A DNA stretch of 64,000 nt from Flavobacteriales bacterium (lineage in GTDB: Bacteria; Bacteroidota; Bacteroidia; Flavobacteriales_F; PHOS-HE28), in NCBI GenBank assembly GCA_016788295.1, contig JAEUSY010000021.1:1417-65416 (forward strand). The letters are read 5' to 3'. The position numbers and the translations under genes are program-made. Position 1 is the stretch's first letter. Every line of letters begins with the position of its first letter. The notes under the pieces are model-generated. The model ran no database searches. It worked only from the letters and a program-made list of their open reading frames with translations, and was not told the DNA's origin. This document shows, one piece after another, positions 7,654 through 29,953 of the stretch.

Positions 7654-7690
7654 AAGGGCGCGGCTCCGCAAGGGCCGCGCCCTTTGCTTT
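7654..7690 (+). terminator. rho-independent terminator hairpin
   Basis: AAGGGCGCGGC-tccgcaaggg-GCCGCGCCCTT followed by TGCTTT, 22 nt after the stop at 7632. Confidence 0.6.
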
Positions 7691-7739
7691 GGCATGATCA
7701 GCATCGAATCGGACCTTTGCCCTCGAACACATCCACATC

Positions 7740-8231: not shown

Positions 8232-8234
8232 ACC

Positions 8235-9182
8235 ATGGCGCGCAAGAGGCAGCGAAAGGAGCACTGCCCCAACTGTGATACAGCGCTGCCTGAGGGCACC
8301 AATTTCTGCCCCAACTGCGGCCAGGAGAACCATACCCATAAACTGCCGGTACGCCATTTCATCATCGAATGGCTTTCGGGTATGTTCAACTTCGACACCA
8401 AGCTGCTGCGCACCCTGCGAGACCTCGTCTGGCCGCCGGGCACAGTGATCCGCGAATTCAATGCGAACAGGCGCATTCGGTATGTTCATCCCCTGCGGAT
8501 CTACTTGTTCACCAGCCTGTTGTTCTTTCTACTGGTGGCGGTTTTGACCAGCAGCCTCCAGGATGGCGAAGGGCCTGCGATCGTTGTGAACGGCTCGGAG
8601 GTAGAACAGGCGGACGGACTGCGGCTGGAGCTTGGGGATGGGAGCAGCGTGGAGGATAGCACGCTGGTGGCGCTCTCCGCCTACAACACCTTAACGAACG
8701 AGCTTATAGACAGCACGCTACTGGCCCATGGCGCTATGCCGAGCCTGATAAATAGGACCGTCATACGTCTGGCGCTCAACCTGAGCGGGAACAGCCTGCG
8801 AAAGGAAGCCTTCGTGCAACAATTGTTCAGCAGCTTCAGCAAGGTCCTCTTTGCGCTGGTGCCTTTGTTCGCTGCCTTGCTCATGGGCCTGTTCTGGCGC
8901 ACCGGCAAGTTCTACACGGAGCACCTCGTCTTCGCATTGTACTTCCACACCTTCCTGTTCCTTCTGCTCGGGATGAGCATGGCGATAGACCAGTGGTCCG
9001 ATGTCAAGACAACAACAACACTGTTACCCGTTCTGGCCATGGTCCATCTGGTCTGGTCGGTACGTACGGTGCACGGAAGAGGTTGGTGGGGCAGCATATG
9101 GCGGGGTATGCTCCTGTCGATACTTTATTCCATCTTGGTCCTTGTCGGCTTGGCCGCTGCGGCCATCATTAGCTCGCTATAA
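8235..9182 (+). CDS. DUF3667-like zinc-ribbon membrane protein
   Basis: 315 aa; N-terminal 'CPNCDTALPEGTNFCPNCGQ' zinc ribbon, then 'HFIIEWLSGMFNFDTKLLRTLRDL' and several TM helices. Confidence 0.55.
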   Translation: MARKRQRKEHCPNCDTALPEGTNFCPNCGQENHTHKLPVRHFIIEWLSGMFNFDTKLLRTLRDLVWPPGTVIREFNANRRIRYVHPLRIYLFTSLLFFLLVAVLTSSLQDGEGPAIVVNGSEVEQADGLRLELGDGSSVEDSTLVALSAYNTLTNELIDSTLLAHGAMPSLINRTVIRLALNLSGNSLRKEAFVQQLFSSFSKVLFALVPLFAALLMGLFWRTGKFYTEHLVFALYFHTFLFLLLGMSMAIDQWSDVKTTTTLLPVLAMVHLVWSVRTVHGRGWWGSIWRGMLLSILYSILVLVGLAAAAIISSL

Positions 9183-9228
9183 CGAAGCGCGTACAGGCAG
9201 CATCCTGCGGGCTTCGCGCATTCATACC

Positions 9229-10521: not shown

Positions 10522-10524
10522 TGT

Positions 10525-12393: not shown

Positions 12394-12396
12394 GGT

Positions 12397-14943
12397 TCAG
12401 GCGTTCTCCAGGATGGTCACAGGCATGTTATCCACTGAACCGCGCAGCACGGCGAAAAGGTCACGCGCCCGCTCCACCTGGCCGTGATGTGGCAAATAGT
12501 GCTCGAACCGGCCTTCGCGAAATCGATACATGGACCGATCGATCGGGTGAACAACAATGAGATGCACCCATTCATGAATGAACCACTCGTAGGTGGCCTT
12601 CACGCTTTGTATCACGCTCAGTACTACATCCGGCTCCTGTTCAACGATCATGAGCAACCGCACGGGATCATGTACCTCGATCATCTGGATTGGTAGTCCA
12701 GGTCGCAGGTCTCCCTCGATCCCATTGGCAACACCTATGAGGCCCATCACATTATGTGGCAGTTTCGTGCCTGCGCCAAGCTTGTGGTTGTCCATCCGGG
12801 AAAAGAAGTACTCCAGGTTGATCCCCCCACAAACCGGAGCCGCTGCACCCAGTATACCAGTGAGGAATTTTCCAGTGGGGTCCACTGTGCTATCATAGCT
12901 GTTCAGGAAAGACCTTCTGTCCAGGAAGAGCCCACGCGTTAGCTCACGTCGACCAACCACACAGAGCGCATTGGTGGCATGGTTCAACTCCGGACGAGGC
13001 TCAAAGAGCGAAACCGAACGCCGACGCACCTGTGCATGGATATCCTCCTCAGCGTCCTGCATGGCCACCGTATCGAAACGACGGGCCCGTTCATGCGCAT
13101 TGGCCTTAAGGGCAGTGCGGAACACCTCCACATGACGAACATGAAAGACCCGTTGTTCGTCGGTCAATAGGGCCTCATCGTAAAAGACGATCTCATCGCG
13201 CGTGGTATCGTGCAGAGCTGCGACAAAACGAGTGCCTGTCGGGATATCAACCCCCTTTTCACGAAGAATGGCGCGAACATCCTTGTGGTTCGCCATGGTA
13301 GAGAACACCCGCGCATTCACCGAACCGGGCCTACCGGAACACGCTCCGCAATCATAAGCCGCGTAGTGCGGGTTGTTCACACTGCTGGCCCCGTGACCTA
13401 CAACATAGACCAGAGGTTCGAAGTTGGAGACCAGGCCGATACCCTTAAGCACTGCTTCAACGCGACTGGCCATTTCGGTTGCCGTGAATCCGACCTGTAG
13501 CCCGTCCTCGCGGTGATCCGCATCCACGTTCTCCACCGTTAGCGAGGCGAGGTGGTCCATGTGCTGAAAGGCATCGGAGGTGCCCGGGATCGCTGTGGGA
13601 CGGAATATGTTTATGAACAACTTCAGCGCGGACCAGAATCCCAAGGTCTGTGAGACGATCCAACCACCCACCAGACCATGGCTGTGCTTTCCGAAGTGTG
13701 CGTCCTTCTTAACCCGTGAGCGCTTGTCCACTTCCTTCACGAGGTAACTCGGCGTTATCGGGGCGGGACAGACCTTGGTATTGAACCGACCATTTTCCGG
13801 ACGGTAGTAGAACTCAACGCCGAAATGGCCTGGAGTCCCGTAGGTGCGGAAGCCAGGGTGCGCACGCTCCAAGTGACGTCGGAAAGAACATTCGCGATCA
13901 TCAATGCAGAACAGCCCTTGGACCGATACTACACCTTCGGCTGCTCGTTCGCGGTCGTTCTGCAGGATGCCAGCAAGGACTTCATCGTAGTATGTCCACT
14001 CGAACGCCTCCTGCCAAAGGGACCTTACCTCGTCGACCTCATTGAATGGCAACGGGGCGAACAATGGGGTTGGACGATGCCGCATCCCTTCGGCTAATGG
14101 CCGCCATCCCTTGGGAAACTCACGATCAAGCGCATCGACCTCCAGGAGCAGCTCGAAAATGATCAGCTCGCGCAGGGAAATGGCCCGTTTGTCCAGTAGC
14201 GAACCGGGGTCCGATTCGATCACTGCAACGAGTCCGGACCATCCTTGGTGGGCGAACTGCTGATCGAAGAGATACTGCTCATACAGGGCCTCATCACCGA
14301 CCAGGATGCCGAGCAATTGCTGGATCGAGGTCTGTTCGTTCATCAGCAGGTCAACAGCCCGAGGTCCCTTGATGAAGCCTGTCCAAGAATGCCGTTGCAG
14401 TTCGCGGATGGAGGAAAGGAAGCCCTTGTTCCAGACGGGGAAGTTCCAGATGGAGATGCCTTGGTCCAAGTAGCTGTTCAGCACCCGGAACAAGGTGGTA
14501 TGTACCACGGCATCCATGTCGATACGCCGGTCGCGCTTCCAATGTCCGCGAAGCCTACCGATACGTGCGTCAATGGAGCTGTCGTACTTCTTGCCGAGCA
14601 TGCGTCCGAGCCACTCACTGGCCTCGGCATCACCTTTCCGATCGCGCACCACACGTTGCAGCACCTCGCTTCGGATGCGGCCTTCGATGTGGAGCTTGCG
14701 GTACTCATGCACCGTAAGGGTTGTCTTGTATCCGAACAAACGCGAGGCGCGATGCAACGCATCGGTGAACTTCTCCTGCTGAAAAGCGTGCAGGGTATTG
14801 TGGTGAATGAAGTCCTTCAGGGGTGCCTGTGCAGGCAGGTAGTGCTTCAGTTCGTGGATAACATGCTCCTCATCGAATCCCGAGCGGACCGACCCCGCAT
14901 TATCGACATTGTGGTCCATGACCGCAGTTGGGTGGGCATCCAT
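12397..14943 (-). CDS. dabA: DabA: DUF2309 carbonic-anhydrase-like subunit of a DAB inorganic-carbon pump
   Basis: 848 aa; 'LKDFIHHNTLHAF', 'FCIDDRECSFRRHLE', 'VGHGASSVNNPHYAAYDCGACSGRPG' match the conserved Cys/Asp and His/Cys zinc-ligand motifs of DabA. Confidence 0.8.
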   Translation of the reverse strand: MDAHPTAVMDHNVDNAGSVRSGFDEEHVIHELKHYLPAQAPLKDFIHHNTLHAFQQEKFTDALHRASRLFGYKTTLTVHEYRKLHIEGRIRSEVLQRVVRDRKGDAEASEWLGRMLGKKYDSSIDARIGRLRGHWKRDRRIDMDAVVHTTLFRVLNSYLDQGISIWNFPVWNKGFLSSIRELQRHSWTGFIKGPRAVDLLMNEQTSIQQLLGILVGDEALYEQYLFDQQFAHQGWSGLVAVIESDPGSLLDKRAISLRELIIFELLLEVDALDREFPKGWRPLAEGMRHRPTPLFAPLPFNEVDEVRSLWQEAFEWTYYDEVLAGILQNDRERAAEGVVSVQGLFCIDDRECSFRRHLERAHPGFRTYGTPGHFGVEFYYRPENGRFNTKVCPAPITPSYLVKEVDKRSRVKKDAHFGKHSHGLVGGWIVSQTLGFWSALKLFINIFRPTAIPGTSDAFQHMDHLASLTVENVDADHREDGLQVGFTATEMASRVEAVLKGIGLVSNFEPLVYVVGHGASSVNNPHYAAYDCGACSGRPGSVNARVFSTMANHKDVRAILREKGVDIPTGTRFVAALHDTTRDEIVFYDEALLTDEQRVFHVRHVEVFRTALKANAHERARRFDTVAMQDAEEDIHAQVRRRSVSLFEPRPELNHATNALCVVGRRELTRGLFLDRRSFLNSYDSTVDPTGKFLTGILGAAAPVCGGINLEYFFSRMDNHKLGAGTKLPHNVMGLIGVANGIEGDLRPGLPIQMIEVHDPVRLLMIVEQEPDVVLSVIQSVKATYEWFIHEWVHLIVVHPIDRSMYRFREGRFEHYLPHHGQVERARDLFAVLRGSVDNMPVTILENA

Positions 14944-15005
14944 GGCACAAAGGTGCCCAGGTCCATATGGGGAAGCATTAACACGGGATTAAACCGTGCG
15001 ACGCG

Positions 15006-16376
15006 CTATTGGGAGATCGGCAGATCCAGCACCACGGATGTGCCCATACCCGATCCGGACCTTATTGTTACCCGACCACCATGTACCCTTACGATCCGAT
15101 CGACGAGCGTTAGCCCGATCCCGTGCCCATCCATGGCCGGCGCATCCACGGCCCTGAAAAACATCTCCTTGGCCCTTTGCAAGGTCTCAGCGCTCATGCC
15201 GGGCCCATCGTCCGCAACGGTAAAGGAAGCGTTGAACGGGCTTACCACGAGACTTAGCAACACCGTCGTACCGCCCCCGTACTTGGCCGCATTCGACAAG
15301 AGATTATACACCGCAGCCGTCAGCAGCACCGAGCTTCCCATTATCACAGGCTCGTGAACCTCGTCCGCGATATCCAGCTCGAAGCGCACAGGCACATGGG
15401 GATAGCGCATCGCGCAACGTTCCATGGCCCGCTCGGCAACCTCATCCAACCTCACACGGTCCTTGAGCAAGGCCGCCGTGGCCACTTGGGTACGTGCCAA
15501 CCAGAGCAATTGGTCCAGCAGGTCCTGCATATGCACGGCTTGTGCTTCAACAGCGTGCAGATGCCTTTCGGCGGGGCCGTTCGGCTCAACCAGTCCTTTG
15601 GCAAGATGCAGTTCACCCCGCACTACAGTAAGTGGTGTGCGCAACTCATGTGAGGCTGTTGCCATGAATGAGCGCTGCACCTCGAACGCTTCATCGAGGC
15701 GGACCAACAGCCCATTGAAGGCAATGGCCACTTCATCCAGCTCGTCCGGGGTCTTGGTATCGTTCACTTGGAGGCGTTCCGAAGGGCGCTCCATGGTGCC
15801 GAGCTGATGCACCAGCTGACGCACTGGAGCAAGGGCCCATGTGGCATAAGCCCATGACAGCAGGGCCGTAAGCAGAAGTGCGACCATCCCGGAACCGATC
15901 ACCCAACGACGCAACAAGGCCATGGACGCCAGCCCGCTCCTATCTATTGCCGAGGTCATGGTGTACCGGATCCCCGCCTGCAAGGTCTCCGGCCTGTCCA
16001 CAACAACGAACTGTCGATCATCCCGAGCAATACGCACAATGCCACGCTGACTTGCAACTTCACGCCAGCTCTTGGGAAGATCGATCGGGCTGGTGGAACG
16101 TTGGAACAGCACGGACCCGTTGGTCCCCAGCACCACCAGCTCCTCATTCGGAAGGGCCTCTTGAAGCAGTTGGGCAAGATGCTCGGCCTCATCAACAGGC
16201 AACGACCGCGCCTGCACCAACAAATGCTCAACAAGCACCGCCCTGTCCTCCAACCGTTGATAGAACTCGGCCTCACGAAGTGCCTCGCTACGCTGAAGAA
16301 TGAGATAGCTGAACGCCAGGATGAGCACCGCCACGAGGACAGTAAACGCCACGGCCATGCGCAAGCGGAAACTCAT
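15006..16376 (-). CDS. sensor histidine kinase (two TM helices, periplasmic domain, HAMP, HisKA, HATPase)
   Basis: 456 aa; H-box 'ATASHELRTPLTVV'; G-boxes 'LLSNAAKYG', 'DDGPGM', 'GHGIGL'. Confidence 0.9.
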   Translation of the reverse strand: MSFRLRMAVAFTVLVAVLILAFSYLILQRSEALREAEFYQRLEDRAVLVEHLLVQARSLPVDEAEHLAQLLQEALPNEELVVLGTNGSVLFQRSTSPIDLPKSWREVASQRGIVRIARDDRQFVVVDRPETLQAGIRYTMTSAIDRSGLASMALLRRWVIGSGMVALLLTALLSWAYATWALAPVRQLVHQLGTMERPSERLQVNDTKTPDELDEVAIAFNGLLVRLDEAFEVQRSFMATASHELRTPLTVVRGELHLAKGLVEPNGPAERHLHAVEAQAVHMQDLLDQLLWLARTQVATAALLKDRVRLDEVAERAMERCAMRYPHVPVRFELDIADEVHEPVIMGSSVLLTAAVYNLLSNAAKYGGGTTVLLSLVVSPFNASFTVADDGPGMSAETLQRAKEMFFRAVDAPAMDGHGIGLTLVDRIVRVHGGRVTIRSGSGMGTSVVLDLPISQ

Positions 16377-17053
16377 GGTGCTTCCTCTCGAATGACATAC
16401 CCCATGCCCGTGACCGTATGAATGAGCCGCTTCACGAAGGGCTTATCCACTTTCTTCCGAAGCATGTTGATGTACACGTCAACGAGGTTCGTTTCCGTGT
16501 CGAAGGAAACATCCCAAACATGGTCCAAGATCTCACCTCGGCTTGTAACCCGTCCCTTTCGTTGGAGAAGGAAACGCAGCAGTGCGAACTCACGCGCCGT
16601 AAGCCTTACTTCCTGCCCTGCGCGCGTGACCGTCCGCGCATCATCATCAAGTTGCAGGTCCCCACAGGTAAGTATGCGCTCTGTGCCCCTACCCTGCGAG
16701 CGCCGCACCAAGGCTTGCACGCGGGCCATGAGCAGTTTGGGGTCGAAGGGCTTGGGGAGATAATCATCGGCCCCGGCCCCGAATCCTTTCACTTGTTCCT
16801 CCACACCATCAAGCGCGGTGAGCATGAGAATGGGAACACGTGGACGCTGTTCGCGCACATGGCGGCACACATCGAGGCCACTTCGTTTGGGCAACATCCA
16901 GTCCAACAAGAGAATGTCGGGCTCCTGTTCTATGGCCATTCGTTCACCCTCCAAGCCGTCCACAGCGATCTCCACTGAGAAACCTGCCGACCTCAACTCC
17001 TGTGCAATGAAGGCCGCGACCTGTGGTTCGTCCTCTACGATCAACGCTCGCAT
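16373..17053 (-). CDS. OmpR-family response regulator
   Basis: 226 aa; 'MRALIVEDE', 'LLLDWMLP', 'PILMLTA', wHTH C-terminus 'GMGYVIRE'; ATGA overlap with the HK. Confidence 0.92.
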   Translation of the reverse strand: MRALIVEDEPQVAAFIAQELRSAGFSVEIAVDGLEGERMAIEQEPDILLLDWMLPKRSGLDVCRHVREQRPRVPILMLTALDGVEEQVKGFGAGADDYLPKPFDPKLLMARVQALVRRSQGRGTERILTCGDLQLDDDARTVTRAGQEVRLTAREFALLRFLLQRKGRVTSRGEILDHVWDVSFDTETNLVDVYINMLRKKVDKPFVKRLIHTVTGMGYVIREEAP

Positions 17054-18846: not shown

Positions 18847-19655
18847 GCCGTTCACTGCACGGCAGCATCATTATGGCCCTTGTTGCCTTGGTGCTTTTGC
18901 CATGGACTGCGAAGGGTCAGACCCAACGGGTCACGGACCCCAACTCCAACCTTTGGATCTCTCATTGGGGCGATCAACGGATACATGATCGCTGGAGCCT
19001 GCACACTGAGATCCATTGGCGCCGGGCAGACATGGGGGTGAATTGGCAACAGTTGCTCATTCGACCAGCGGTGAACTTCCACCTGAACGACCACGTGCTG
19101 TTCACCCAGGGCTACAGCTACTATTTCAACTACCAGTACGGCGACCACCCGATACGCTACCAGAACTGGGAACACCATTTGTACCAACAGGTGCAGCTCA
19201 CCCAACCGTTGGGGCGTATCAAGTTCCAGCACCGGTTCCGCATGGAGGAACGGTTCATCGCACAACTTATCCCATCAGAGGAGAACCCAGCGGATGGCGC
19301 GTTCGACCACTATGCCTATCAGAGCCGGTTCAGGTACCGTGTCTGGCTGACCATTCCGCTGGGTAAGCATGAGAAAGTGGAGCCCGGCGTGCTGTCGGCC
19401 AACTTCTACGACGAGGTGTTCCTCAATTTCGGTGACAGCCAACGGTTGGACTACATCCAACAGAACAGGATCTCTGCCATGCTGGGCTACCAAGTGAACA
19501 AACCCTTCAGTGTGCTACTTGGGTTCCTGTACCAGACCATTGAGCGACCCCAAGCGGCGAACGGTGCGGACCTGCTCGAACTGAACTCCACGATACACCT
19601 GGCACTGGTGTACAACTTGGACCTACGAAAGCAGGAATTACCAGCGGCCCATTGA
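18843..19655 (+). CDS. DUF2490-like protein (signal peptide; possible outer-membrane protein)
   Basis: 270 aa; signal peptide 'IMALVALVLLPWTAKGQ'; aromatic/Arg-rich 'RFRYRVWLTIPL' patterns; ATGA-coupled to the SulP stop. Confidence 0.4.
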   Translation: MSRSLHGSIIMALVALVLLPWTAKGQTQRVTDPNSNLWISHWGDQRIHDRWSLHTEIHWRRADMGVNWQQLLIRPAVNFHLNDHVLFTQGYSYYFNYQYGDHPIRYQNWEHHLYQQVQLTQPLGRIKFQHRFRMEERFIAQLIPSEENPADGAFDHYAYQSRFRYRVWLTIPLGKHEKVEPGVLSANFYDEVFLNFGDSQRLDYIQQNRISAMLGYQVNKPFSVLLGFLYQTIERPQAANGADLLELNSTIHLALVYNLDLRKQELPAAH

Positions 19656-19657
19656 AA

Positions 19658-19690
19658 AGCGAAGCCCGCCTTACGGGGCGGGCTTCTGAG
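19658..19690. terminator. bidirectional terminator hairpin between convergent genes
   Basis: GAAGCCCGCC-ttacgg-GGCGGGCTTC located 3 nt after the stop at 19655. Confidence 0.55.
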
Positions 19691-19835
19691 TATCCTGAAC
19701 TCCCGGCTTACGGGCCTGGACAAGGGCTTTTTACGCCGCTGGGCTGATGCCCCCTGTGTTCAGGTATTTCATTCGGAGCTTGCTTACCCAAGCTTCGTGC
19801 TTGATCAACGCAAGGCATGTGCCGAATGTTGCACG

Positions 19836-20006
19836 CTATTTCGAAGACTGTTCGGGAAGAGTGGCCAACAAGGCTTCGGCCTCTGCCCGTTTCAGATCGC
19901 TGGCACGACGATCCACAGTGCTCAACCGATGCGACTCGGCCAACAGGTCCTTGTACCGCTTCATGATCTGGTCCCGTGGATCTTTCTTCTTGAACAGTCC
20001 GAACAT
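19836..20006 (-). CDS. Lacal_2735-family small protein (56 aa), absent from the ORF track
   Basis: hand translation of the minus strand: MFGLFKKKDPRDQIMKRYKDLLAESHRLSTVDRRASDLKRAEAEALLATLPEQSSK*; the 'MFGLFKKK' N-terminus is the hallmark of this Bacteroidota family. Confidence 0.55.
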   Translation of the reverse strand: MFGLFKKKDPRDQIMKRYKDLLAESHRLSTVDRRASDLKRAEAEALLATLPEQSSK

Positions 20007-20081
20007 TATGGGGAGTTTTTTGAAGAACGCTTTCGCTCCTTATCCTGTTCGCAGAAATATCCCTGACCGGTCATACTTGGC

Positions 20082-20453
20082 TCATAACATCGCCTCCCCC
20101 TTCAGGAACATGACGAAAATGAAGGTCATGAGGAAATGATGCAGCAGCAGAAGGCCGGTCATTACGGTAAGCACCGTTTTACCACTGGGCGAAAGCTCTG
20201 GGAAGAGCTTCTTGTTGTTCATGGCGATGATGGGCAAGGGCACCGTGGCCAGCAGGAAGGTGATGGCCAGTGTGCGGAACAGCACCACATCGTTCATTAC
20301 GCCGAAGAAGAGGTGAGCGTAATAGAACAGGAACCCGATGAAAGACAACAGGCCCAACCGGATGAAGAGGCGGGACTCAGCGACCATTTTCTCCTTGGTA
20401 TCCATAGCAGTAGACGCACCCCTTGAACGGGGTTGCGTGGTCCGCGGTTTCAC
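20082..20453 (-). CDS. small membrane protein (3 TM helices), last gene of the membrane-protein operon
   Basis: 123 aa (or 107 aa from MDTKEKM); ATGA overlap with the upstream gene. Confidence 0.4.
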   Translation of the reverse strand: MKPRTTQPRSRGASTAMDTKEKMVAESRLFIRLGLLSFIGFLFYYAHLFFGVMNDVVLFRTLAITFLLATVPLPIIAMNNKKLFPELSPSGKTVLTVMTGLLLLHHFLMTFIFVMFLKGEAML

Positions 20454-21187
20454 TTCTCAACGATCCCCTTGGATAAGCCTGCCAGTGAGCGGTATGACCT
20501 GACCACCGCGACCAGCCCAAGAACGGACCCCAACAAGAACCAGCCCCAACTAAATGGACCGGGCACGTAGCTGTCAATGACCGCGGACATGGAGCTGCTT
20601 GGGGTTTGGACCGATCGAACGAAAGATCCAGTGCGAATGCCTTGGGTGAACGGGTCCATCATGAACGAGACCAGAAAGACCAGGACCGAAAGACCCAACA
20701 GCCACCAGATGGACGCGCTGATCTTCCAAGTCGCATCCCTGGACCTGGCCGCGATGATGATCAGGCCAACGACGATCAATCCGATGGATATAAAGCAGGG
20801 CGCCCATACCGGCCCGACCCATGGCAACGGAAGAAGGAACAGCAGGTCGCTATCGAAGATCGTTGAAGGCCAATCGATCAACACCTTCAGCCACGCGTAA
20901 TAGCCAAGGTCCCAAATACCAAAGCCGATGCAGAACCACGCGAATCGCTCCAAGGCCCTGCTGGCCAACATGGCTGCCACTGTCCAGAGCATCACCATGG
21001 TGGCAACCTCTCGACATACTTCGGTCACCACCAAGTTGGCATCCATGGGCACCAATGGAAAGTGGAACCCGGCCGGATAGTAAAGGGCCCGTATGTAGAT
21101 CACTACCGCGCTCTCCAACAAGGCCATGGCCAAGAAGAACACGGAAGCGGTCACAAGCCGAACCCTCAGTTCCCTGTTCATCATCAT
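20450..21187 (-). CDS. polytopic membrane protein, unknown function
   Basis: ~246 aa from MMMNRELRV; ATGA overlaps on both sides; about 7 hydrophobic helices. Confidence 0.45.
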   Translation of the reverse strand: MMMNRELRVRLVTASVFFLAMALLESAVVIYIRALYYPAGFHFPLVPMDANLVVTEVCREVATMVMLWTVAAMLASRALERFAWFCIGFGIWDLGYYAWLKVLIDWPSTIFDSDLLFLLPLPWVGPVWAPCFISIGLIVVGLIIIAARSRDATWKISASIWWLLGLSVLVFLVSFMMDPFTQGIRTGSFVRSVQTPSSSMSAVIDSYVPGPFSWGWFLLGSVLGLVAVVRSYRSLAGLSKGIVEK

Positions 21188-21699
21188 TGGCGATCCGAAA
21201 ATTGACCAAAGTGGGTGGAGACCACATTGATATCGTATCGGCGCTCCATGCGGCGAATACGGCGAAGCACGGTCCAAAGAGGAATAGCACCCACAACACC
21301 GAACGATGCATCAACACAACGCCAGAAGAAGGGAATGCCCCGGACGGGTGCCCACAGGAAGGCCAGGAGCAGCACGCAGGCGCAACACAAGAGCCCCCAT
21401 TCCACTACCCATTTGTTCCTGACGGGATCGCGGAAAGGACCGATGAAAGCCATGGCAATGACCACATGAGCAAAGGCGAGCCAATCCGTTCCATAGAACA
21501 ACAGCGGGTAGTTCGCATCCACCAAGGCCACCGCATCTGCGGCTTTCTCGGCCCATTCGTACAAGGGGCCACCCACAGGTTCAACAAGCTCAGCAAAAAC
21601 CGAAGTCAGCCAAACGAGCGGAACGGCCGTCAAACCGCTGACGAGCAGGCCCAGCATGAACACCAATAACCAGCGGCGGATATAGGTCAGGTCGCTCAT
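21184..21699 (-). CDS. polytopic membrane protein, unknown function
   Basis: 171 aa; 4 predicted TM helices; ATGA overlap with neighbours. Confidence 0.45.
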   Translation of the reverse strand: MSDLTYIRRWLLVFMLGLLVSGLTAVPLVWLTSVFAELVEPVGGPLYEWAEKAADAVALVDANYPLLFYGTDWLAFAHVVIAMAFIGPFRDPVRNKWVVEWGLLCCACVLLLAFLWAPVRGIPFFWRCVDASFGVVGAIPLWTVLRRIRRMERRYDINVVSTHFGQFSDRQ

Positions 21700-23291
21700 G
21701 ACCGGGGCTTTTCAGGCAGGAAATACCTTATGGTCCTTGCATCAGCGAGGTTCCATTCCTGCCAGTGGGCCTTGCTGCTACGCTTTAGGAAGCGGTCACG
21801 CTTCAGATCCAGCGACCTCCTGAAATACTGGGGCTCCAGCGTCTCCACCCAACGCACACGGTTGTTGCGATGCCTCGCCATCTGCATCTCAACGACCTCG
21901 ATGTTCTCGTACAGCAAGGGCAGCACCTTATCGCTCATGGCGAGGTAGTTGTCGATATCGATCTCGCCCGGGTTGTTGTGCTTCAGGTTGTGGCGCACGA
22001 TCACGGTATCCCAATCCACGGTTGAAAGCGAGACCAACACCATGAATAAGGCCCAGGTGTTCAGGCGGACCAGGTAGAAAAAGCTCTTTCGCTCCTTCAC
22101 CTTGAAGTACAGCGTGATCAGCCCTACCATCACCAACGCAAGAAAAACGATGACACCGATGCGCTTGTAGGCAAGGCCATGGAATGAGATGTAATGGTAG
22201 TTGCGCAGGAACACCGAGATGCCGAGGATGAAGTTCTGGCACAACCAGAGCAGGGCCAAGCGCTTCAGGGCATCACCCTTTTCGTAGAAATTCTGGTTGC
22301 CGCGGAACAGGTGTAACAGGATGACCATACTGAGCAGGATACTGATGATCAGGGCCCAAGTGCCCTCATGAACGAATTGCTTCAAGCTGAAGTCATCTGG
22401 CACTTCGAACCCAAACCAGACCCACGAAACATCGATGGCATTGACCACCGCCAATAGAACATTGACCAGCACCAGGAGCACCATGCCCATACGCCTCTCC
22501 CGTTCGAGGAGGTTCATACCCGTGGGAGCCAACCACTGCGGGCGCCGTATGCGCTTGCGCAACAGGAAGTCAGTCCAACGTTGCTCCCATTGCACCACCG
22601 TGGCAGGCGCGTGGCGGAACAACAACACTCCCGCAACGAACATGGCGAACAGGAAGAACAAGGCATGCGGTGTGAAGATGCTCGTGAGCAGGTCGGCAAT
22701 GAAAGACCATAGACCATCGAGAAAACCGGCGGTGAGCGCTTCGAATCTGGGGTTGCCTACGCGGTAGATCTGGAAGAACACCACTCCGATAATGAGCGGT
22801 AGAACCATGATCCTGCCCAGGCTCCAGCTCTTACGCGGGGCCCGCTCGGCGTGGACCAATTCTCCGGCACCATCCCATGCCGAAGCTGGTAGCATAATGG
22901 CGTTCGCCACGGCCTGCTGTAGTGCGTAATAGAGACTTCGCAATCGGGGTTCGTGGGCCAATGCACTGCCAAGAACGAGACCCATTACTGCCACCACCAT
23001 GGAAAGAACGCTGTTGTTCACAACGACCATCGCCGCACTTAACAACGCACCACCCAAGGCAGTGCGTGCTGGCAACGACAGTCCGCTCCAACCGAGACGC
23101 ATCACCAGGACACCGATGACAACCATGGTGAACAAGAGCACGTTGATGCCCAGATCCATCAAATGGAACAACCGATCAAAGATGATCGCGGTCAGAAATA
23201 TGGTAAGCAGTGGCAGCCAGCGGCGCAGACGTTGGTCGAACATGTTCTTGGGGTTAGACATCCTTTCGGGGAATGAGCTTTTCAATGGCAT
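21696..23291 (-). CDS. large polytopic membrane protein, unknown function (resembles Bacteroidota DUF4173/DUF4153-type proteins; unverified)
   Basis: 531 aa; more than 10 hydrophobic helices; the start may be 23261 or 23243 rather than 23291, since the 5' end overlaps the wHTH gene. Confidence 0.45.
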   Translation of the reverse strand: MPLKSSFPERMSNPKNMFDQRLRRWLPLLTIFLTAIIFDRLFHLMDLGINVLLFTMVVIGVLVMRLGWSGLSLPARTALGGALLSAAMVVVNNSVLSMVVAVMGLVLGSALAHEPRLRSLYYALQQAVANAIMLPASAWDGAGELVHAERAPRKSWSLGRIMVLPLIIGVVFFQIYRVGNPRFEALTAGFLDGLWSFIADLLTSIFTPHALFFLFAMFVAGVLLFRHAPATVVQWEQRWTDFLLRKRIRRPQWLAPTGMNLLERERRMGMVLLVLVNVLLAVVNAIDVSWVWFGFEVPDDFSLKQFVHEGTWALIISILLSMVILLHLFRGNQNFYEKGDALKRLALLWLCQNFILGISVFLRNYHYISFHGLAYKRIGVIVFLALVMVGLITLYFKVKERKSFFYLVRLNTWALFMVLVSLSTVDWDTVIVRHNLKHNNPGEIDIDNYLAMSDKVLPLLYENIEVVEMQMARHRNNRVRWVETLEPQYFRRSLDLKRDRFLKRSSKAHWQEWNLADARTIRYFLPEKPRS

Positions 23292-23547
23292 CCAAATGCT
23301 GACGGAACGCGCGGCCTCCGGCCACTGTTGTCTTGTAGCTGGTATTGGGGCGTTTGCCTATAAAGCGCTTACGCACTTGTACGTAGCCGATTACCTCCAA
23401 TGCCGCCAGGTGACTAGCGAGATTGCCATCGGTGACACCCAGCAGTTCCTTCAGACGGGCATGGTCCACCCATTCGTTCACCACCAGCACGGCCATGATG
23501 CCGAGGCGAACGCGGCTGTCGAACGCTTTATTGAGTTGTTCGATCAT
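23254..23547 (-). CDS. winged-helix (HTH_34-like) transcriptional regulator
   Basis: 97 aa; 'MIEQLNKAFDSRVRLGIMAVLVVNEWVDHARLKELLGVTDGNLASHLAALE' is the conserved Bacteroidota wHTH family. Confidence 0.6.
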   Translation of the reverse strand: MIEQLNKAFDSRVRLGIMAVLVVNEWVDHARLKELLGVTDGNLASHLAALEVIGYVQVRKRFIGKRPNTSYKTTVAGGRAFRQHLDAIEKLIPRKDV

Positions 23548-24251
23548 GGGAGATCGCCTTCTGCGGGACCACGCTCGTACCGATAGTACATCAGCGCACC
23601 ATAGAAGATGTGTAGCACACCGAATCCGATGGTCCAGATGAGCAAAGCCGCATCAAGACGAATGAGGGCAACAAGGCCCAAAACCAATTCGCTCAGCCCC
23701 AACCAACGGATCTCATCCAACGTGAACTTGCTCGCATGGAACAGGGCCAGGCCGTAGAAGATCAAGGTGGCCGCAGGCACCAGGCCAGGCAGGCGATAAT
23801 GGAACAAAGCCAAGCAGAAAAAACCGCCAACGATCAAGGGCACTGCGGTATTGACCACCAGTCGCCTGGCGCTCGCATCCCAAATACCCTGGCCTGTCCT
23901 GCGACCTCGGCGCCACGTGAACCACAACGCTCCGGAAATCGCCACTAAGAGAACAATGGCGCCATCGATAAGAAGGAACCCCAAATGCTCTTCCCAATGA
24001 TCGGAACCGATCGGTGAAGGCGCGAGCGATGAGCGCCGAATTCGATCATCCCAGAACAACGCGAGGTAATGAGGGCGTGCCAGATAGGCCCCGATAATGG
24101 CAGCCACACCGGCTATCACACCGCTAAGACCGCTCAAACTGAGAAAGCGGGTACTGCGGTCCATCAACCCGCGTATGTGGGCCAGGTCATTCATCCGGTC
24201 GTTCGATGTCATGTGCAAAGTACTTTGTACTACAAAGTAACGTGTCGACAC
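23544..24251 (-). CDS. membrane protein, unknown function (first gene of the operon)
   Basis: 235 aa; 4-5 TM helices; start uncertain (maybe at MTSNDRM); ATGA overlap with the wHTH gene. Confidence 0.4.
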   Translation of the reverse strand: MSTRYFVVQSTLHMTSNDRMNDLAHIRGLMDRSTRFLSLSGLSGVIAGVAAIIGAYLARPHYLALFWDDRIRRSSLAPSPIGSDHWEEHLGFLLIDGAIVLLVAISGALWFTWRRGRRTGQGIWDASARRLVVNTAVPLIVGGFFCLALFHYRLPGLVPAATLIFYGLALFHASKFTLDEIRWLGLSELVLGLVALIRLDAALLIWTIGFGVLHIFYGALMYYRYERGPAEGDLP

Positions 24252-24281
24252 GGTGCGAATTGTCCTTCTCTGAAAAAATAT

Positions 24282-25001
24282 TCAATGCATGGTGAGCGCG
24301 CCAAGCGTAGCGCCTACCAGAACGGCCGCGAATCGCTGCGCATTGAAGCGATGCTCCGGAGCGCTCTCGAAGATGATGGTGGTGCTGATGTGCAGCAACA
24401 TACCAATGGCCAGGGCCAGCATATGATCCAGAAAATGACCCTCAGCACCCTCATCCACCAGATTGCCAGCCATGATCCCCAGCGGAGCGGCAAGAGCAAA
24501 GACCACCAACAGCATCCATGTTCGTCCCGACCCTACATGTGAGCGCTGTAGAACGGTGGCCAACGCCACGGCCATGGGCATCTTGTGCAGTAGCACACCC
24601 GCTAGGAAGGGGACATTACCCGCTACCGAGGGATCAGCAAAGGGCATCCCCTCTGCGAACGAGTGCAGGCAAAGGCTTGCCAGTGTAATGAACGGCAATG
24701 CCTTGCCGGGGGTGGCGTGCATATGGCCATGCTCTATTCCATGACTGAAGAACTCGAGCACCACCTGCAACAGGAAGCCGCCAAGTATCCACAGGCCGAT
24801 GTCATGCCCCACCTCCTCGTAAAGCTCGGGAAGCATGTGCAGGAAGACCACGGCCAGCAGGAACGCACCACTGAAGGATAGCAGCAGGCGCATCCACCGT
24901 GCATCAGGGCGCAACCACTGGACCATGGCGCCCGAAAAGAGCGGCAACAAGAGGAACGCCAATGCAACAACGCCGATCATGACAAGGGCCTCATCAACCA
25001 T
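24282..25001 (-). CDS. ZIP-family metal cation transporter
   Basis: 239 aa; 'HSFAEGM', 'LHKMPMAVALATVL', His-rich loop 'HGIEHGHMH'. Confidence 0.85.
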   Translation of the reverse strand: MVDEALVMIGVVALAFLLLPLFSGAMVQWLRPDARWMRLLLSFSGAFLLAVVFLHMLPELYEEVGHDIGLWILGGFLLQVVLEFFSHGIEHGHMHATPGKALPFITLASLCLHSFAEGMPFADPSVAGNVPFLAGVLLHKMPMAVALATVLQRSHVGSGRTWMLLVVFALAAPLGIMAGNLVDEGAEGHFLDHMLALAIGMLLHISTTIIFESAPEHRFNAQRFAAVLVGATLGALTMH

Positions 25002-25705
25002 AGAACATACCGACCAGAAACATCCACATCGAAAGCGGTGGGTACGGGACCATCGGTGCGATCCGCGATAAGGAACCCTGCGGCCTTCGCCATTTCCTCC
25101 AACTGGCTCGGCATCAGGGCCTTTACCCGTTCCTGAAAATGCTCGGTGACCGACCCATCGGCAACTGCGATATGCTTCACGATGACGCCGTTCTCCACTC
25201 CCCGCTGGACCGTGAACCGGATACCATCGCGCTCCAATTCCTCAAGCTGGACCAGATCGTTGATAACGCGGGCCGTGTTCATGAAATCGACCACGAAATG
25301 CCCCCCTGGTCGCACTGCGGCAAAGGCGGCATCGAACACCCGTTGCTCATCCTTCAGGTCATCGAAGTAGCCGATGCTGGTGAACAGGCAACAGACCAGA
25401 TCGAACTGCCCATTACCCACCGGGTCACGCATATCATGCACATGGAACTCTCCATTGGGCAAGTTGGCCTGTGCTTCAGCTATGCTGGCAGGATCAATGT
25501 CCACACCAGTGACGCGCATACCTGAATGCAAGAACCAGCGGGCATGACGTCCCCGGCCGCAAGCCATATCGAGCACCGAAGCACCTTCAGGAACATGCAG
25601 CCGGTCCAGGATCATATCCACCCAAGCCTTCGCTTCCCGCTCATCGCGGTGCCCATAGAGCAGGGTGTAATATCGAGTGCCGAACCAATTGCGGTACCAA
25701 GCCAT
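24977..25705 (-). CDS. class I SAM-dependent methyltransferase
   Basis: 242 aa from MAWYRNW; motif I 'VLDMACGRGRHARWF'; the track ORF is extended 5' by 122 codons of probable non-coding sequence. Confidence 0.7.
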   Translation of the reverse strand: MAWYRNWFGTRYYTLLYGHRDEREAKAWVDMILDRLHVPEGASVLDMACGRGRHARWFLHSGMRVTGVDIDPASIAEAQANLPNGEFHVHDMRDPVGNGQFDLVCCLFTSIGYFDDLKDEQRVFDAAFAAVRPGGHFVVDFMNTARVINDLVQLEELERDGIRFTVQRGVENGVIVKHIAVADGSVTEHFQERVKALMPSQLEEMAKAAGFLIADRTDGPVPTAFDVDVSGRYVLWLMRPLS

Positions 25706-25825
25706 GAGGGAAGCCCCGGTGGCACCGGGACCGCGAATGTAACCCGGCCCTTTGGGTTGACAATTACGTGGATAACTCAACACATGCAGCATTGATCGGA
25801 CCCGCCTCACAGCGCTTGCTTTGCA

Positions 25826-26416
25826 TTGGAAGGCTCCGGGCCATCCTACCGAACTCGCATGCTTGACCGCATTCACGACCTGTACGATGAGCTCGAACGT
25901 CAGCGCGTCATGCTTTCCTTCAAAGGAAGCCTGACCGAGGACCTGATCACGGCCCTGCTCGGCCTGGTGGAACGCAAGATGCTGGCCATAGAGCCCGATG
26001 CCAGGGCCAGGAAACGGGTCTTCAACGTGGTGACCGAATGCCTGCAGAACCTTTACCACCACAACGCGCATCTAAAACTGGCGGATGGACAAGCCGTGCA
26101 GACCACGGACCCGCATGGTGTTGTAATGATCGCCCATGCGGACAGCGGCTATTCCGTTCTGACGGGAAATTTCATGGCCGCAGGCGATGTTGACCGTTTG
26201 AAGACCCATTTGGACAAGATCAATACGCTCGGTCCCGATAAGCTCCGCGACCTCTACCGCGACACCCTTGCCGACGGCCAGTTCAGTCCACATGGTGGCG
26301 GAGGACTGGGCATGATCGATATTGCCCGTAAAAGCGGAGGCAAGCTCGAATACGGATTCGTGCCCTACGACAAGGACAACGCCTTCTTCAGCCTTAACGT
26401 TAACGTGACCCCTTAG
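25826..26416 (+). CDS. SiaB-like (DUF6272, GHKL-type) protein kinase of a partner-switch pair
   Basis: 196 aa (maybe from MLDRIHDLYDEL at 25859); 'ECLQNLYHHN', 'GGGGLGMIDIARKSGGKLEY' GHKL-like ATP lid; followed after 10 bp by the DUF1987 gene. Confidence 0.5.
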   Translation: MEGSGPSYRTRMLDRIHDLYDELERQRVMLSFKGSLTEDLITALLGLVERKMLAIEPDARARKRVFNVVTECLQNLYHHNAHLKLADGQAVQTTDPHGVVMIAHADSGYSVLTGNFMAAGDVDRLKTHLDKINTLGPDKLRDLYRDTLADGQFSPHGGGGLGMIDIARKSGGKLEYGFVPYDKDNAFFSLNVNVTP

Positions 26417-26426
26417 CCCATTCAAC

Positions 26427-26819
26427 ATGGCACCGCTCCAACTTGAAGGTTCGCCCAAGACCCCGCATGTCAATTTCGATCCCGAGACCGGGTTGCTTGA
26501 ACTGAAGGGGCGCTCCATTCCGGAGAACTCCATTGACTTCTACAAGCCCTTGATCGACTGGATCGACAAGTACGGGCGCAGTCCGCAGCCCAAGACAGCC
26601 CTGCACATGCAGTTGGAGTACTTCAATACCAGTTCATCCAAGTGCATTCTCGATGTGTTCAAGAAACTGGAGGCCATTCGTGCCGCTGGCAACGAGGTGA
26701 CCGTGCTTTGGCACTACGAGGCCGATGATGAGGACATGCTGGAGGCCGGCGAGGACTATGCAGGCATCATCAATGTTCCATTCCGAATGATCCAGATCGC
26801 CGAAGTGGATGACAATTAG
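26427..26819 (+). CDS. DUF1987 (SiaC-like) protein
   Basis: 130 aa; 'LEGSPKTPHVNFDPETGLLELKGRSIPENSIDFYKPLIDWI' matches the DUF1987 N-terminal consensus. Confidence 0.65.
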   Translation: MAPLQLEGSPKTPHVNFDPETGLLELKGRSIPENSIDFYKPLIDWIDKYGRSPQPKTALHMQLEYFNTSSSKCILDVFKKLEAIRAAGNEVTVLWHYEADDEDMLEAGEDYAGIINVPFRMIQIAEVDDN

Positions 26820-26878: not shown

Positions 26879-29800
26879 CTATCGTCTGCCGGAACGAGGC
26901 AATGCATTCAGTAACCTGAGGAAGACCTCGCCATAGAGGGCTATCGCCAGCAACAAGGACATGCCCCAGAGCACCAATGTGTTCGCCCAAAGTGTTGGTA
27001 CCCGAACGCTTCCCAGGTATTTCGATGGCGCATAGAACTGGGCCCCGAAGAAGCCACTGTACCTGGGTTCGATATAAATGGGATCACTCTTCTGAACGAG
27101 TTCCCCGTGGTATTCCACGATCACGTTCACGTCGTTCTTGTTGGTGACCACTTCCGCCAGGCTCTCATTGCGGAAGGCATCAAGGCGAGCGAAGTACTCC
27201 CCACGTTGTTCGGGCGTGCCGGTAAGCTGTGTGATCAATTTTTCCTTCTCCGCCTCAGCCGTTTTGTATGCCGTGCGGTAGTGTTGCGTTAGTGTTCGCA
27301 GGGCTTCATCCACTTGATCCAATACCTCGGAATCCACGCGACCGGGTTCCAATTGGTCCAACATCGGAAGTTCAAATCCGTTCAGCACCTTGGTCTCCTT
27401 CTCCAACTCGCTGCGTAACAGTGCGAGATCATGTTCCATCTCGCCCCCTCCGGACTCAGCGGCCAAGGTGCGGCGTACGTTGCCAGATGCATTCTCCAAC
27501 TCGCGCACCCAGAGATCCTTCTTCCAGTTGGCCGTCTTCATGCGCCTGTCCAACGGATAGAATTGCTTCTCGTAGTCGTTCTCCATGAACTGAGTAACGG
27601 CCAGCCCTTCATAGGCCCAACGCGACGCCATGATGTTGCCGATCCACGGCACGCTGCGCTCCGAAGCGAACCACGGGTGCAGCTTATCGAACTTGACGAT
27701 GATACCGCTGAACAACAGCTGCGGGATGATCAGCACCGGGATCATGATGTAGATGACCTTGGCGCTATTGAAACTCGCACTGATGTTGAGACCGAGCACA
27801 TTGGCGAAACAAGACGTGCTGAACAGCAGGATCCAGTGCACCATGGTGAGGCCCTCAATACCCAGCACGGTGTTTCCCACGAGCACGAACAGCAGGGTCT
27901 GGATGGCCGAAATGAGGAACATAAGACCCACTTTGCTCACGAGATAGCTGGCCCAGCTCAGGTCCAGGAACTTCTCGCGTTGCAGGATCTTGCGGTCGCG
28001 TATCACCTCCTCAGCGCTCACTGTGAGCCCCAGGAACAAGGCAACGATCACTGCAATGAACAGGTACTGCGGCAGGTTATCATTCTCCCGGAAGATGTAG
28101 GCATCCAGCGTTCCATGGCCAGTGCGGTAGTACCGCAGGAAGAACGACATGATGAAGGCGAGCACTGGTGCCTCCAGCAGGTTGATGAGCACATACTGCG
28201 TATTGGCCAGTTTGCTCAATAGATCACGCTTGAAATAGACCCGCATCTGCCTGAGCCGGTCAGGCGCAGCGAAGGTGCTCTTTGGCACACTGCGTTCCTC
28301 GGGAACCATGGCCGCGCGGCCTTCCATTTGTGCACGGAAGACCTCGTTCCACGCCTCCGGGCTGATGCGTCGTTGATCGGTCTCGTTGCCGTACTCATCC
28401 ACCAGTTTGGCCTCGAGGATGTTGAAGATCTGCTCCGGGTTCACGTTACCGCAGGCACTGCACTGGCCCACATCGCTGTTCACCTGCCCGGTCACGCGCT
28501 TGAAGTAGACCACGGCGTCCACAGGGTCACCGTAGTAGACCGGATGCCCTTCCTGGTCCATCAGCAGCAGCTTGTCGAACAACTTGAAGATGTCCGAGGA
28601 GGGCTGGTGAATGACCACGAACACCACACGCCCTTTGAGCGCAAGCTCCTTGAGCAGGTCCATGATGTTCTCTGAATCGCGCGAACTGAGCCCGCTCGTG
28701 GGTTCATCCACGAACAGCACACTGGGTTCACGGATCAGTTCCAAGGCGATGTTCACGCGTTTGCGCTGACCACCACTGATGGTCTTCTCCAACGGACTGC
28801 CGACCTTGAGATCCTTCGTCTCGAACAGCCCCAAACTTTGCAGCATGCGCATCACGCGCTCGTGGATACCCTTATCGTCCTGGTCGCCGAAGCACAACTT
28901 GGCGTTGAAGAACAGGTTCTGGTAGACCGTGAGCTCCTCGATGAGCAGATCATCCTGGCTTACGTGACCGATGACACCCCGAATACGCTCCCGCTCGGTG
29001 TGCACATCGATCCCATTGATCGTCACGTGGCCCCGGCTCGGCTTCAGGTTGCCATTAAGGACATTAAGCAGGGTGCTCTTACCACTACCACTGCCACCCA
29101 TGATGCCGATGAGCTTGCCACCGGTCTCGGCCATGTGCAGCTCGTGCAGGCCGATCTTGCCATTGGGGAACGCATACTCGATGCCGTCCGCCTTGAACAC
29201 CGCACGAGGACGGCCGTTCCGGCTCATGAAGGCACCAAGGATGTCGCTGTAGTAGATGGGCACTCCGTGCGGAGGCCTTACACTACTGCCGTTGCTGAGC
29301 ACGTAGTGACTGCCGCGGCTCATTCGCTGACCGTTCAACAACACCTCGGCCTGTCCGGTGTAGCGCATAACGTACAGGTTCACGCTGGGTACGTGCAACA
29401 CGCGCAGATCGCCATCGAGGCCATGTGCATGCAGGTGCCTTGCCTGGCCGAAGGTGTTCTCGTGAGCAGCATCCACATACAGCAGATGGGCGGCGTCCTC
29501 GCGGTGCTGTACCTGTGGGTCCACGAACTGCAGGCAGCGCTTGAAGTCCTCCTGACCAATATTGAAGGTCTCGGCCACGGTGGAAACGAACTCCATTTCC
29601 TGTTCGCCGGCATGACCATCCGCATGAATGAACTCGAGCAGGTGGACCAGCACCACGAACTTCTGGCGTTGGTTCAGCTCTTCGTTCACCTGGGTGCAGA
29701 TCTTGAGGACCTTCACCGAATTGAGCGAGGTGCGCTTGCGGCCACTGCGGCTCTGCCCACCACTGGCATGAAAGGCCTGTACGAAGGATTGGTAGCGGAC

Positions 29801-29953
29801 CATGTGTCCCGCAGCCACTTCGGGACTGAACTGTTTCCTCAGGAAACGCTCCAGCGGTGCTGCATTATCGGGTCGCGCACCATCGGCCACGGCATCGCCC
29901 TTGGCGATGATCGCGAACAGTTGCAGCAGTGCCTTGAGTATCTTCTCGCTCAT
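26879..29953 (-). CDS. ABC transporter, fused ATP-binding and ABC-2-type permease, with ~290-aa N-terminal extension
   Basis: 1024 aa; Walker A 'GGSGSGKST'; signature 'ISGGQRKRVNIA'; Walker B 'VLFVDEPTSGL'; C-terminal 6 TM helices; N-terminal TerB-like and FHA-like segments (tentative). Confidence 0.8.
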   Translation of the reverse strand: MSEKILKALLQLFAIIAKGDAVADGARPDNAAPLERFLRKQFSPEVAAGHMVRYQSFVQAFHASGGQSRSGRKRTSLNSVKVLKICTQVNEELNQRQKFVVLVHLLEFIHADGHAGEQEMEFVSTVAETFNIGQEDFKRCLQFVDPQVQHREDAAHLLYVDAAHENTFGQARHLHAHGLDGDLRVLHVPSVNLYVMRYTGQAEVLLNGQRMSRGSHYVLSNGSSVRPPHGVPIYYSDILGAFMSRNGRPRAVFKADGIEYAFPNGKIGLHELHMAETGGKLIGIMGGSGSGKSTLLNVLNGNLKPSRGHVTINGIDVHTERERIRGVIGHVSQDDLLIEELTVYQNLFFNAKLCFGDQDDKGIHERVMRMLQSLGLFETKDLKVGSPLEKTISGGQRKRVNIALELIREPSVLFVDEPTSGLSSRDSENIMDLLKELALKGRVVFVVIHQPSSDIFKLFDKLLLMDQEGHPVYYGDPVDAVVYFKRVTGQVNSDVGQCSACGNVNPEQIFNILEAKLVDEYGNETDQRRISPEAWNEVFRAQMEGRAAMVPEERSVPKSTFAAPDRLRQMRVYFKRDLLSKLANTQYVLINLLEAPVLAFIMSFFLRYYRTGHGTLDAYIFRENDNLPQYLFIAVIVALFLGLTVSAEEVIRDRKILQREKFLDLSWASYLVSKVGLMFLISAIQTLLFVLVGNTVLGIEGLTMVHWILLFSTSCFANVLGLNISASFNSAKVIYIMIPVLIIPQLLFSGIIVKFDKLHPWFASERSVPWIGNIMASRWAYEGLAVTQFMENDYEKQFYPLDRRMKTANWKKDLWVRELENASGNVRRTLAAESGGGEMEHDLALLRSELEKETKVLNGFELPMLDQLEPGRVDSEVLDQVDEALRTLTQHYRTAYKTAEAEKEKLITQLTGTPEQRGEYFARLDAFRNESLAEVVTNKNDVNVIVEYHGELVQKSDPIYIEPRYSGFFGAQFYAPSKYLGSVRVPTLWANTLVLWGMSLLLAIALYGEVFLRLLNALPRSGRR

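Follow-up and report, generated by a model that had tools for sequence, protein, structure and literature searches.

A conserved five-gene membrane-protein module of Bacteroidota with a candidate winged-helix repressor and operator

On the minus strand of contig JAEUSY010000021.1 of a Flavobacteriales bacterium (NCBI GenBank assembly GCA_016788295.1), six compactly arranged open reading frames (ORFs), here named O1 to O6 in order of transcription, lie between positions 20082 and 24251 of a 64,000-nt stretch of DNA, which we refer to as the window. Five of them encode polytopic membrane proteins and one a small winged-helix protein, which raises the question of what kind of unit, if any, they form. 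Our analysis suggests that O1 to O5 constitute a single autoregulated operon that is conserved across Bacteroidota, and that its cargo may remodel membrane lipids or the envelope under stress. Taken as a whole, we regard this reading as plausible, if slightly short of an even chance, and its regulatory and its metabolic parts differ in strength.

All six ORFs are present where the original prediction had placed them, and each has hundreds to thousands of homologues, so that we regard all of them as real genes. O1 (23544..24212, minus strand, as are all cluster genes) encodes a membrane protein of 222 amino acids with about six transmembrane (TM) segments, and O2 (23254..23547) a winged-helix protein of 97 amino acids. 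They are followed by O3 (21696..23261), a polytopic membrane protein of 521 amino acids, O4 (21184..21699), a membrane protein of 171 amino acids with about four TM segments, and O5 (20450..21187), a membrane protein of 245 amino acids with six TM segments and a β-hairpin. O6 (20082..20405) is a membrane protein of 107 amino acids with three TM segments. Hydropathy analysis finds multiple TM segments in O1, O3, O4, O5 and O6 and none in O2, in agreement with the five multi-TM proteins originally predicted, and the AlphaFold models of O3 and O5 agree with this character. No mutual homology was detected by hhalign between O4 and O3, O4 and O5, or O1 and O3. O4 and O5 are 100% identical to JNL52_05955 and JNL52_05950, respectively.

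The first five genes overlap throughout. ATGA start/stop overlaps join O1 to O2 (23547-23544), O3 to O4 (21699-21696) and O4 to O5 (21187-21184), as had been proposed; the other two proposed joins needed correction. O3 starts at the ATG at 23261, which leaves an overlap of 8 nt with O2 (ATGTCTAA); the reported 38 nt apply only when the longest ORF is taken, and the length of O3 is 521 rather than 531 amino acids. Similarly, the 235-amino-acid version of O1 is an ORF opening with GTG. The ortholog alignment places the same start, the ATG at 24212, in all orthologues, and gene calls made independently on identical contigs also give 222 amino acids. At the far end, the supposed GTGA junction of O5 and O6 is not real, as O6 starts at the ATG at 20405, 45 nt past the O5 stop codon, and every O6 orthologue begins with M-x-x-K-x-K-M. 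Together with the synteny described below, the junctions support a set of overlapping, presumably co-transcribed genes with an embedded winged-helix regulator, which thus comprises five genes rather than the six first proposed.

A genome scan anchored on DUF4153, the family of O3, with DUF4153 patterns specific to this clade, returned 80 loci, all of them from metagenome-assembled genomes (MAGs) of uncultured Flavobacteriales; gene order in the loci was read by tblastn with the window proteins. The prevailing order in 85 Flavobacteriales loci is MT-ZIP-O1-O2-O3-O4-(EEP)-O5-O6, in which MT denotes a methyltransferase, ZIP a metal permease and EEP an Exo_endo_phos phosphoesterase. Conserved synteny, a check suggested with the original prediction, was found: it is kept in about 70 of these 85 loci, and the association survives shuffling of the order in other orders of Bacteroidota. 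These rearrangements came to light in loci of more distant O5 homologues. A Chitinophagales locus (L086) reads O1-O2-O4-O3-DUF1361-B12 radical-SAM-O5, a Bacteroidales locus (L087) O1-O2-O3-O5, and a Bacteroidia locus (L089) O1-O2-O4-O3-O5-DUF1361-DAGK; the module is also present in the metagenome loci L091, L108, L110, L117, L119, L132 and L143. O4 is placed ahead of O3 in L086, L089, L108 and L119, and MT, ZIP and O6 do not accompany the module in the Chitinophagales, Bacteroidales and Bacteroidia loci. The shuffled internal order and the loss of MT, ZIP and O6 therefore argue for a functional link and against a merely inherited order.

The opposite view, that there is no functional unit and that the adjacency is simply a gene order inherited in one Flavobacteriales family, can point to the origin of all 80 DUF4153-anchored matches in one uncultured clade and to the loss of several members in sub-lineages. 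Three loci (L011, L065 and L081) retain just MT-ZIP-O3-O6, and a fourth (L074) shows O3 and O6 on a contig that ends inside O3. However, linkage of these five families recurs in other orders, where their internal arrangement differs and the DNA site upstream is shared, and these rearranged loci largely refute an inherited order, which we consider barely credible.

The shared DNA site lies directly ahead of O1. In the window it occupies 24216..24238 (minus strand; ACTTTGTAGTACAAAGTACTTTG) and is built of three ACTTTG/CAAAGT half-sites; 3 nt separate its end from the O1 ATG. The aligned O1 upstream regions give the consensus TtACTTTG-N5-CAAAGtACTTTG; the near-invariant 23-bp site, ACTTTG-N5-CAAAGTACTTTG, is located 3-5 nt, usually 3 nt, upstream of the O1 start codon. 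Its ten core positions show essentially no variation (about 2 bits each). The window holds a single match in its 64 kb, compared to 0.04 expected. Across 89 loci, the exact 21-nt core occurs at the same place upstream of O1 in 72, and in four more the site deviates by one or two mismatches; the others either have no O1 upstream region or are without O1 and O2. Wherever the O1 upstream region is available, including in Chitinophagales, Bacteroidales and Bacteroidia, the site occurs once per locus before O1. Eight loci (L086, L087, L089, L108, L110, L119, L132 and L143) bear a second copy past O2, ahead of the next gene, which is either O4 or O3.

The site co-occurs with O2. The site is absent from three loci that lack O2 (L057, L065 and L081), and in L011 it is retained in front of O3. 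Loci scored as devoid of O1 and O2, 506 kb in total, gave only 5 matches; one of them is in L091, where O1 and O2 are in fact present, and another directly upstream of the solitary O5 gene of L162. Half-sites 1 and 2 are inverted with a centre spacing of 11 bp, as expected of a winged-helix dimer, and we therefore read the site as a candidate O2 operator. From this co-occurrence we infer that O1 to O5 form the O2 regulon, which in the present lineage appears to have been fused into a single operon.

The element could instead act as RNA, with a 5'-leader hairpin of the form ACUUUG-loop-CAAAGU occluding the start region. Repeats 1 and 2 can indeed pair to form a stem of 6 bp around a loop of 5 nt, and this structure would end some 10 nt short of the AUG. 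However, the arms are invariant and thus show no covariation, with the loop free to vary, and a hairpin offers no explanation for the third half-site, ACTTTG, which is conserved to the same degree; the RNA hairpin is for these reasons the weaker alternative to an operator. Its co-occurrence with a winged-helix gene also speaks against it, and Rfam gave no match over 19000-26500. We judge such a leader element to be quite improbable. A scan with the sigma-70 consensus, which is not applicable to Bacteroidota promoters, found sites no more commonly than in shuffled sequence.

The protein that would occupy the operator, O2, is a full-length member of HTH_34 (PF13601; 89.5 bits against a cut-off of 27, profile positions 1-80 of 80). 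Its closest solved structure is PH1061 (PDB 1UB9; E = 1e-6), aligned over residues 10-93. The recognition helix, TDGNLASH, shows no variation across orders, and its invariance parallels that of the DNA site across the same range of lineages. Among the PADLOC defence models, the sole match is a generic winged-helix similarity of O2 to Csa3 (E = 2e-4). As an ArsR/SmtB metalloregulator, O2 was considered and rejected: the score with the corresponding model (NF033788) is 22.8 bits, well under the cut-off of 55, and neither an ArsR/SmtB metal site nor a conserved α3N/α5 set of metal ligands was found in it. The protein is free of cysteine, with H46 (in the recognition helix) and H84 as its only invariant histidines.

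These features bear on the possibility that the locus serves zinc or iron homeostasis, with an ArsR-like repressor that senses metal and controls ZIP and accessory membrane proteins. The ZIP-family permease gene (24282..25001, minus strand, 232-239 amino acids; PF02535, 89 bits) lies on the same strand 69 nt upstream of O1, most loci of the clade have the MT-ZIP pair ahead of O1, and O2 does resemble ArsR/SmtB proteins weakly. In contrast, MT-ZIP is not part of the module in Chitinophagales, Bacteroidales and Bacteroidia. Furthermore, ZIP and O1 are separated by the conserved site, which places ZIP outside the unit that it bounds, and O2 lacks the cysteines and conserved ligands of a metal sensor, its ArsR score being far under the cut-off. 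A metal-homeostasis role thus appears highly improbable.

O1, which shares an ATGA overlap with O2 in 67 of 69 loci, has a conserved N-terminal helix, a conserved basic loop (WFTWRRxRRxGQxLWDASARRL in the ortholog alignment) and a conserved C-terminus, all of which are predicted to be cytoplasmic; its first external loop is variable. We propose that O1 modulates O2 because the two genes are consistently ATGA-joined, the cytoplasmic faces of O1 are conserved and its outer loop varies. O1 matches the DUF308/HdeD-like family at 16.7 bits, below the gathering cut-off of 25, and weak DUF308 matches over the last two helices were seen in 12 of 28 O1 orthologues.

A precedent for such a pair is SdpR/SdpI, in which a winged-helix autorepressor and a multi-TM protein are encoded in one operon and SdpI sequesters SdpR at the membrane (PMC2910880). 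By analogy, we postulate that O2, as an HTH_34 dimer, binds to the ACTTTG-N5-CAAAGT-ACTTTG site immediately ahead of the O1 start codon and, when bound there, represses the O1 to O5 operon. O1 would be its membrane-embedded partner, sensing a membrane or envelope signal and relieving repression; it could keep O2 at the membrane in the manner of SdpI with SdpR. This regulatory architecture, with O2 at the site, O1 as its partner and O1 to O5 as the controlled unit, we consider likely. A stricter analogy, in which O1 or another of the membrane proteins neutralises a peptide toxin as part of an SdpRI-type immunity and signalling system, would share the layout of a small autorepressor next to a polytopic membrane protein. 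However, no locus has a toxin gene near the cluster, and O1 falls outside the SdpI family: a comparison of O1 and 27 orthologues with SdpI/YhfL family models gave no SdpI match even at E <= 1. Vertical conservation across orders is likewise atypical of immunity genes, and we find an immunity function about as remote as one in metal homeostasis.

The cargo under this control would be the three polytopic membrane proteins O3, O4 and O5. The original prediction held that no member of the cluster matches a characterised family. This is true of O1, O4, O5 and O6, for which searches of Pfam and NCBIfam with each protein and 22-33 orthologues, at E <= 1, gave no significant match, but not of O2 (HTH_34) or O3. 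O3 belongs to DUF4153 (PF13687, named DUF4173 by NCBI; 130 bits against a cut-off of 27, profile positions 3-372 of 373), and PF13687 is present in all O3 homologues. It comprises about 12 helices and a C-terminal cytoplasmic helical region. The AlphaFold models of O3 (predicted local distance difference test score, pLDDT, 86) and O5 are confident, and neither protein has a solved structural relative; the O3 model found no meaningful match among PDB folds, and PDB sequence-profile searches with O1, O3, O4, O5 and O6 found nothing significant.

O4 contains the conserved motifs YGTDWLAFAH and RGIPFFWRCVDASFG; its homologues number 4298 at 90% clustering, every one annotated as hypothetical. The O5 family comprises 1820 clusters at 50% identity among 1.8 billion representatives. 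Its β-hairpin is conserved and residues E25, R33, E56, R59, E60, D93 and D114 are invariant. Longer O5 homologues, considered as possible fusions, contain no Pfam domains. In one homologue of 326 amino acids (P0283), the conserved N-terminal four-TM core is duplicated in tandem; this core is thus probably an independent structural unit.

Given three polytopic proteins, of which O3 alone has about 12 helices, the cargo could also be a transport or efflux assembly, with DUF4153, O4 and O5 acting as a secondary transporter or exporter that is induced by its substrate through O1 and O2. Small repressors commonly adjoin efflux genes. However, positive support for transport is lacking, and no transporter, ATPase or efflux signature was found. 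We regard this alternative as improbable, though less so than the RNA, metal or immunity readings.

The genes inserted into the cluster in other lineages may hint at membrane lipids or the envelope. Most relatives carry, between O4 and O5 and overlapping both, a gene for a 310-amino-acid membrane-anchored EEP phosphoesterase (L001 10039-10971 and about 60 further related loci); the O4/EEP junction is an ATGA overlap in 40 of 59 loci. The gene is cleanly absent from the window, at 21184-21187, from its closest relatives (L006-L008) and from L013, L076 and L079. In four loci (L089, at 7767-8877, L100, L108 and L119), a DUF1361 membrane protein and then a DAGK_prokar (DgkA-type) kinase follow directly after O5 or O3. 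A B12-binding radical-SAM gene lies inside the cluster of L094 (5169-6509), a contig of the Flavobacteriales clade, and of L086 (5589-7004), the Chitinophagales MAG. The two radical-SAM proteins are 75% identical, compared to 24-57% for the other cluster proteins, which suggests transfer or strong constraint. Their best similarities are to hopanoid-associated enzymes and lie below threshold.

Because EEP, the DgkA-type kinase, DUF1361 and the B12 radical-SAM protein are inserted into the cluster in this way, we suggest that the most likely job of the cargo may be to remodel or turn over membrane lipids or the envelope when the cell is under stress, a role that we put forward tentatively and consider rather doubtful. 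More specifically, O3, O4 and O5 could be integral-membrane enzymes or scaffolds with folds not yet represented among solved structures, which carry out a Bacteroidota-wide lipid remodelling, pass its by-products to an interchangeable EEP or DgkA-type kinase, and are switched on when O1 captures O2 at the membrane. This version is speculative and, in our estimate, improbable.

Several observations weigh against the combined reading of O1 to O5 as an autoregulated lipid or envelope operon. On the regulatory side, it is from co-occurrence alone that we propose that O2 binds the site, which might instead serve as, or partly coincide with, a promoter element or the RNA hairpin described above, and O1 has no similarity to SdpI detectable with family models. 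On the side of the cargo, O3, O4 and O5 yielded no identifiable catalytic motif. O5 homologues are solitary in 14 of 19 well-flanked loci outside the clade, so that O5 is not obligately tied to the module; the Pfam content of 75 same-strand neighbours of solitary O5 genes revealed no recurrent partner. O4 and EEP are dispensable in several lineages, and EEP is missing from this window. Finally, each accessory enzyme was seen in only a few lineages, none can be placed in a specific pathway, and the radical-SAM matches fall far under every family cut-off.

O6 lies outside the O1 to O5 module, as judged by a conserved promoter-like element of its own and by its occurrence without or far from the module. 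It is found without O1, O2, O4 and O5 in L011, L065 and L081, and 5 kb away in L079. A gap separates O5 and O6 in 57 of 60 loci, with a median of 79 nt; the other three have predicted overlaps, and ATGA occurs in none. Mean identity among O6 orthologues is 78%. The 60 nt upstream of O6 are conserved in 65 loci, and the aligned upstream regions contain invariant CAAC and CGTC columns 15 nt apart. In the window, this candidate promoter of the extracytoplasmic function (ECF) sigma type (20413..20436, minus strand) consists of a -35 element GCAAC, a 15-nt spacer and a -10 element CGTC; across the loci, 6-8 nt separate the end of CGTC from the O6 ATG. ECF-sigma promoters have AAC in the -35 and CGTC in the -10 element with spacers of 14-17 bp (PMC5758882). 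The O6 element shares both this AAC/CGTC signature and the spacer length (PMC5758882); the comparison set is from Firmicutes.

O6 is probably driven by an ECF sigma factor, and it is best viewed as an independent gene that may respond to envelope stress. A cognate sigma or anti-sigma gene was not identified; inspection by eye of the ORFs of 150 or more amino acids at 1-16400 of the window revealed no ECF sigma gene. An RNA hairpin in the O5-O6 spacer was also considered and set aside; its inner stem lacks consistent covariation, and a promoter accounts better for the invariant CAAC and CGTC. Further upstream, a GTAACC...CGTT pair may be a second ECF-type promoter, and a GACGCA/TGCGTC inverted repeat spans the same upstream stretch. 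The next gene, 75 nt after O6, encodes a Lacal_2735 family protein of 56 amino acids (19836..20006, minus strand; NF033487, 62.4 bits against a cut-off of 32). It is the last gene ahead of an intrinsic-terminator-like hairpin (19661..19686, minus strand) with a 10-bp stem of which 8 pairs are G-C, followed by a T-run; from 25700 to 19600, this strand has no other strong hairpin of the kind. Both O6 and the Lacal_2735 gene lie downstream of the module as cistrons of their own.

Upstream of the module, the class I S-adenosylmethionine (SAM)-dependent methyltransferase MT (24977..25705, minus strand, 242 amino acids) has an ATGA overlap with ZIP, which holds in the window if ZIP starts at 24980 and is found in 47 of 61 relatives. 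Between ZIP and O1 there is always a gap in relatives, with a median of 70 nt. The MT-ZIP pair and O6 are lineage-specific neighbours of the module. The original prediction mentioned neither the operator-like palindrome nor the MT-ZIP pair, the Lacal_2735 gene with its terminator, or the EEP gene of relatives. Beyond MT, a DUF6272 and SiaC-family pair (25826-26416 and 26427-26819, plus strand) and a 1024-amino-acid ABC-2 transporter with an N-terminal TerB-like domain (26879-29953, minus strand) form an arrangement that is kept beside the cluster in relatives. Elsewhere in the window are two very long plus-strand ORFs (45186-54035, 2949 amino acids; 54448-63186, 2912 amino acids), as well as a plus-strand ORF of 500 amino acids (407-1909) that by eye resembles a HipA-type kinase toxin from its DDHTKN motif.

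Many genes in the envelope and lipid biology of Bacteroidota are still unassigned. With these observations, what was a series of hypothetical proteins becomes a defined unit that is open to testing: a five-gene module with a 23-bp candidate operator and a candidate sensor-repressor pair. They provide a first regulatory and genomic context for DUF4153 and delineate, with O4 and O5, two membrane-protein families that have no Pfam model or solved structural relative. If the lipid or envelope role is true, the module would represent a new stress-responsive membrane pathway; otherwise, it is one more conserved operon. The literature searched contains no description of the module, the operator or the O4 and O5 families, which have no curated family, and no functional information was found there on DUF4153/DUF4173, HTH_34, PH1061 or DUF1361. 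The sole substantive mention of DUF4153/DUF4173 states that DUF4153 is unrelated to Cache domains (PMC4822843).

Compared to known systems, the O1/O2 pair most resembles SdpR/SdpI of Bacillus subtilis (PMC2910880), with a small winged-helix autorepressor and a multi-TM protein in one operon and conserved cytoplasmic surfaces that might retain the repressor at the membrane. It differs in that the gene for the membrane protein comes first, three extra membrane proteins would be co-regulated, there is no toxin gene, and the hosts are Bacteroidota rather than Firmicutes. O2 shares the whole 80-residue HTH_34 domain with PH1061 of Pyrococcus horikoshii (1UB9), which comes without a known operator or membrane partner. 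With ArsR/SmtB regulators, O2 has in common the winged-helix fold class and a metal permease gene nearby; in contrast to them, it lacks metal ligands, and its adjacency to ZIP is specific to the lineage. O3, for its part, is a full-length member among DUF4153/DUF4173 proteins. The arrangement is familiar in kind: a small autorepressor and a membrane partner that control membrane proteins.

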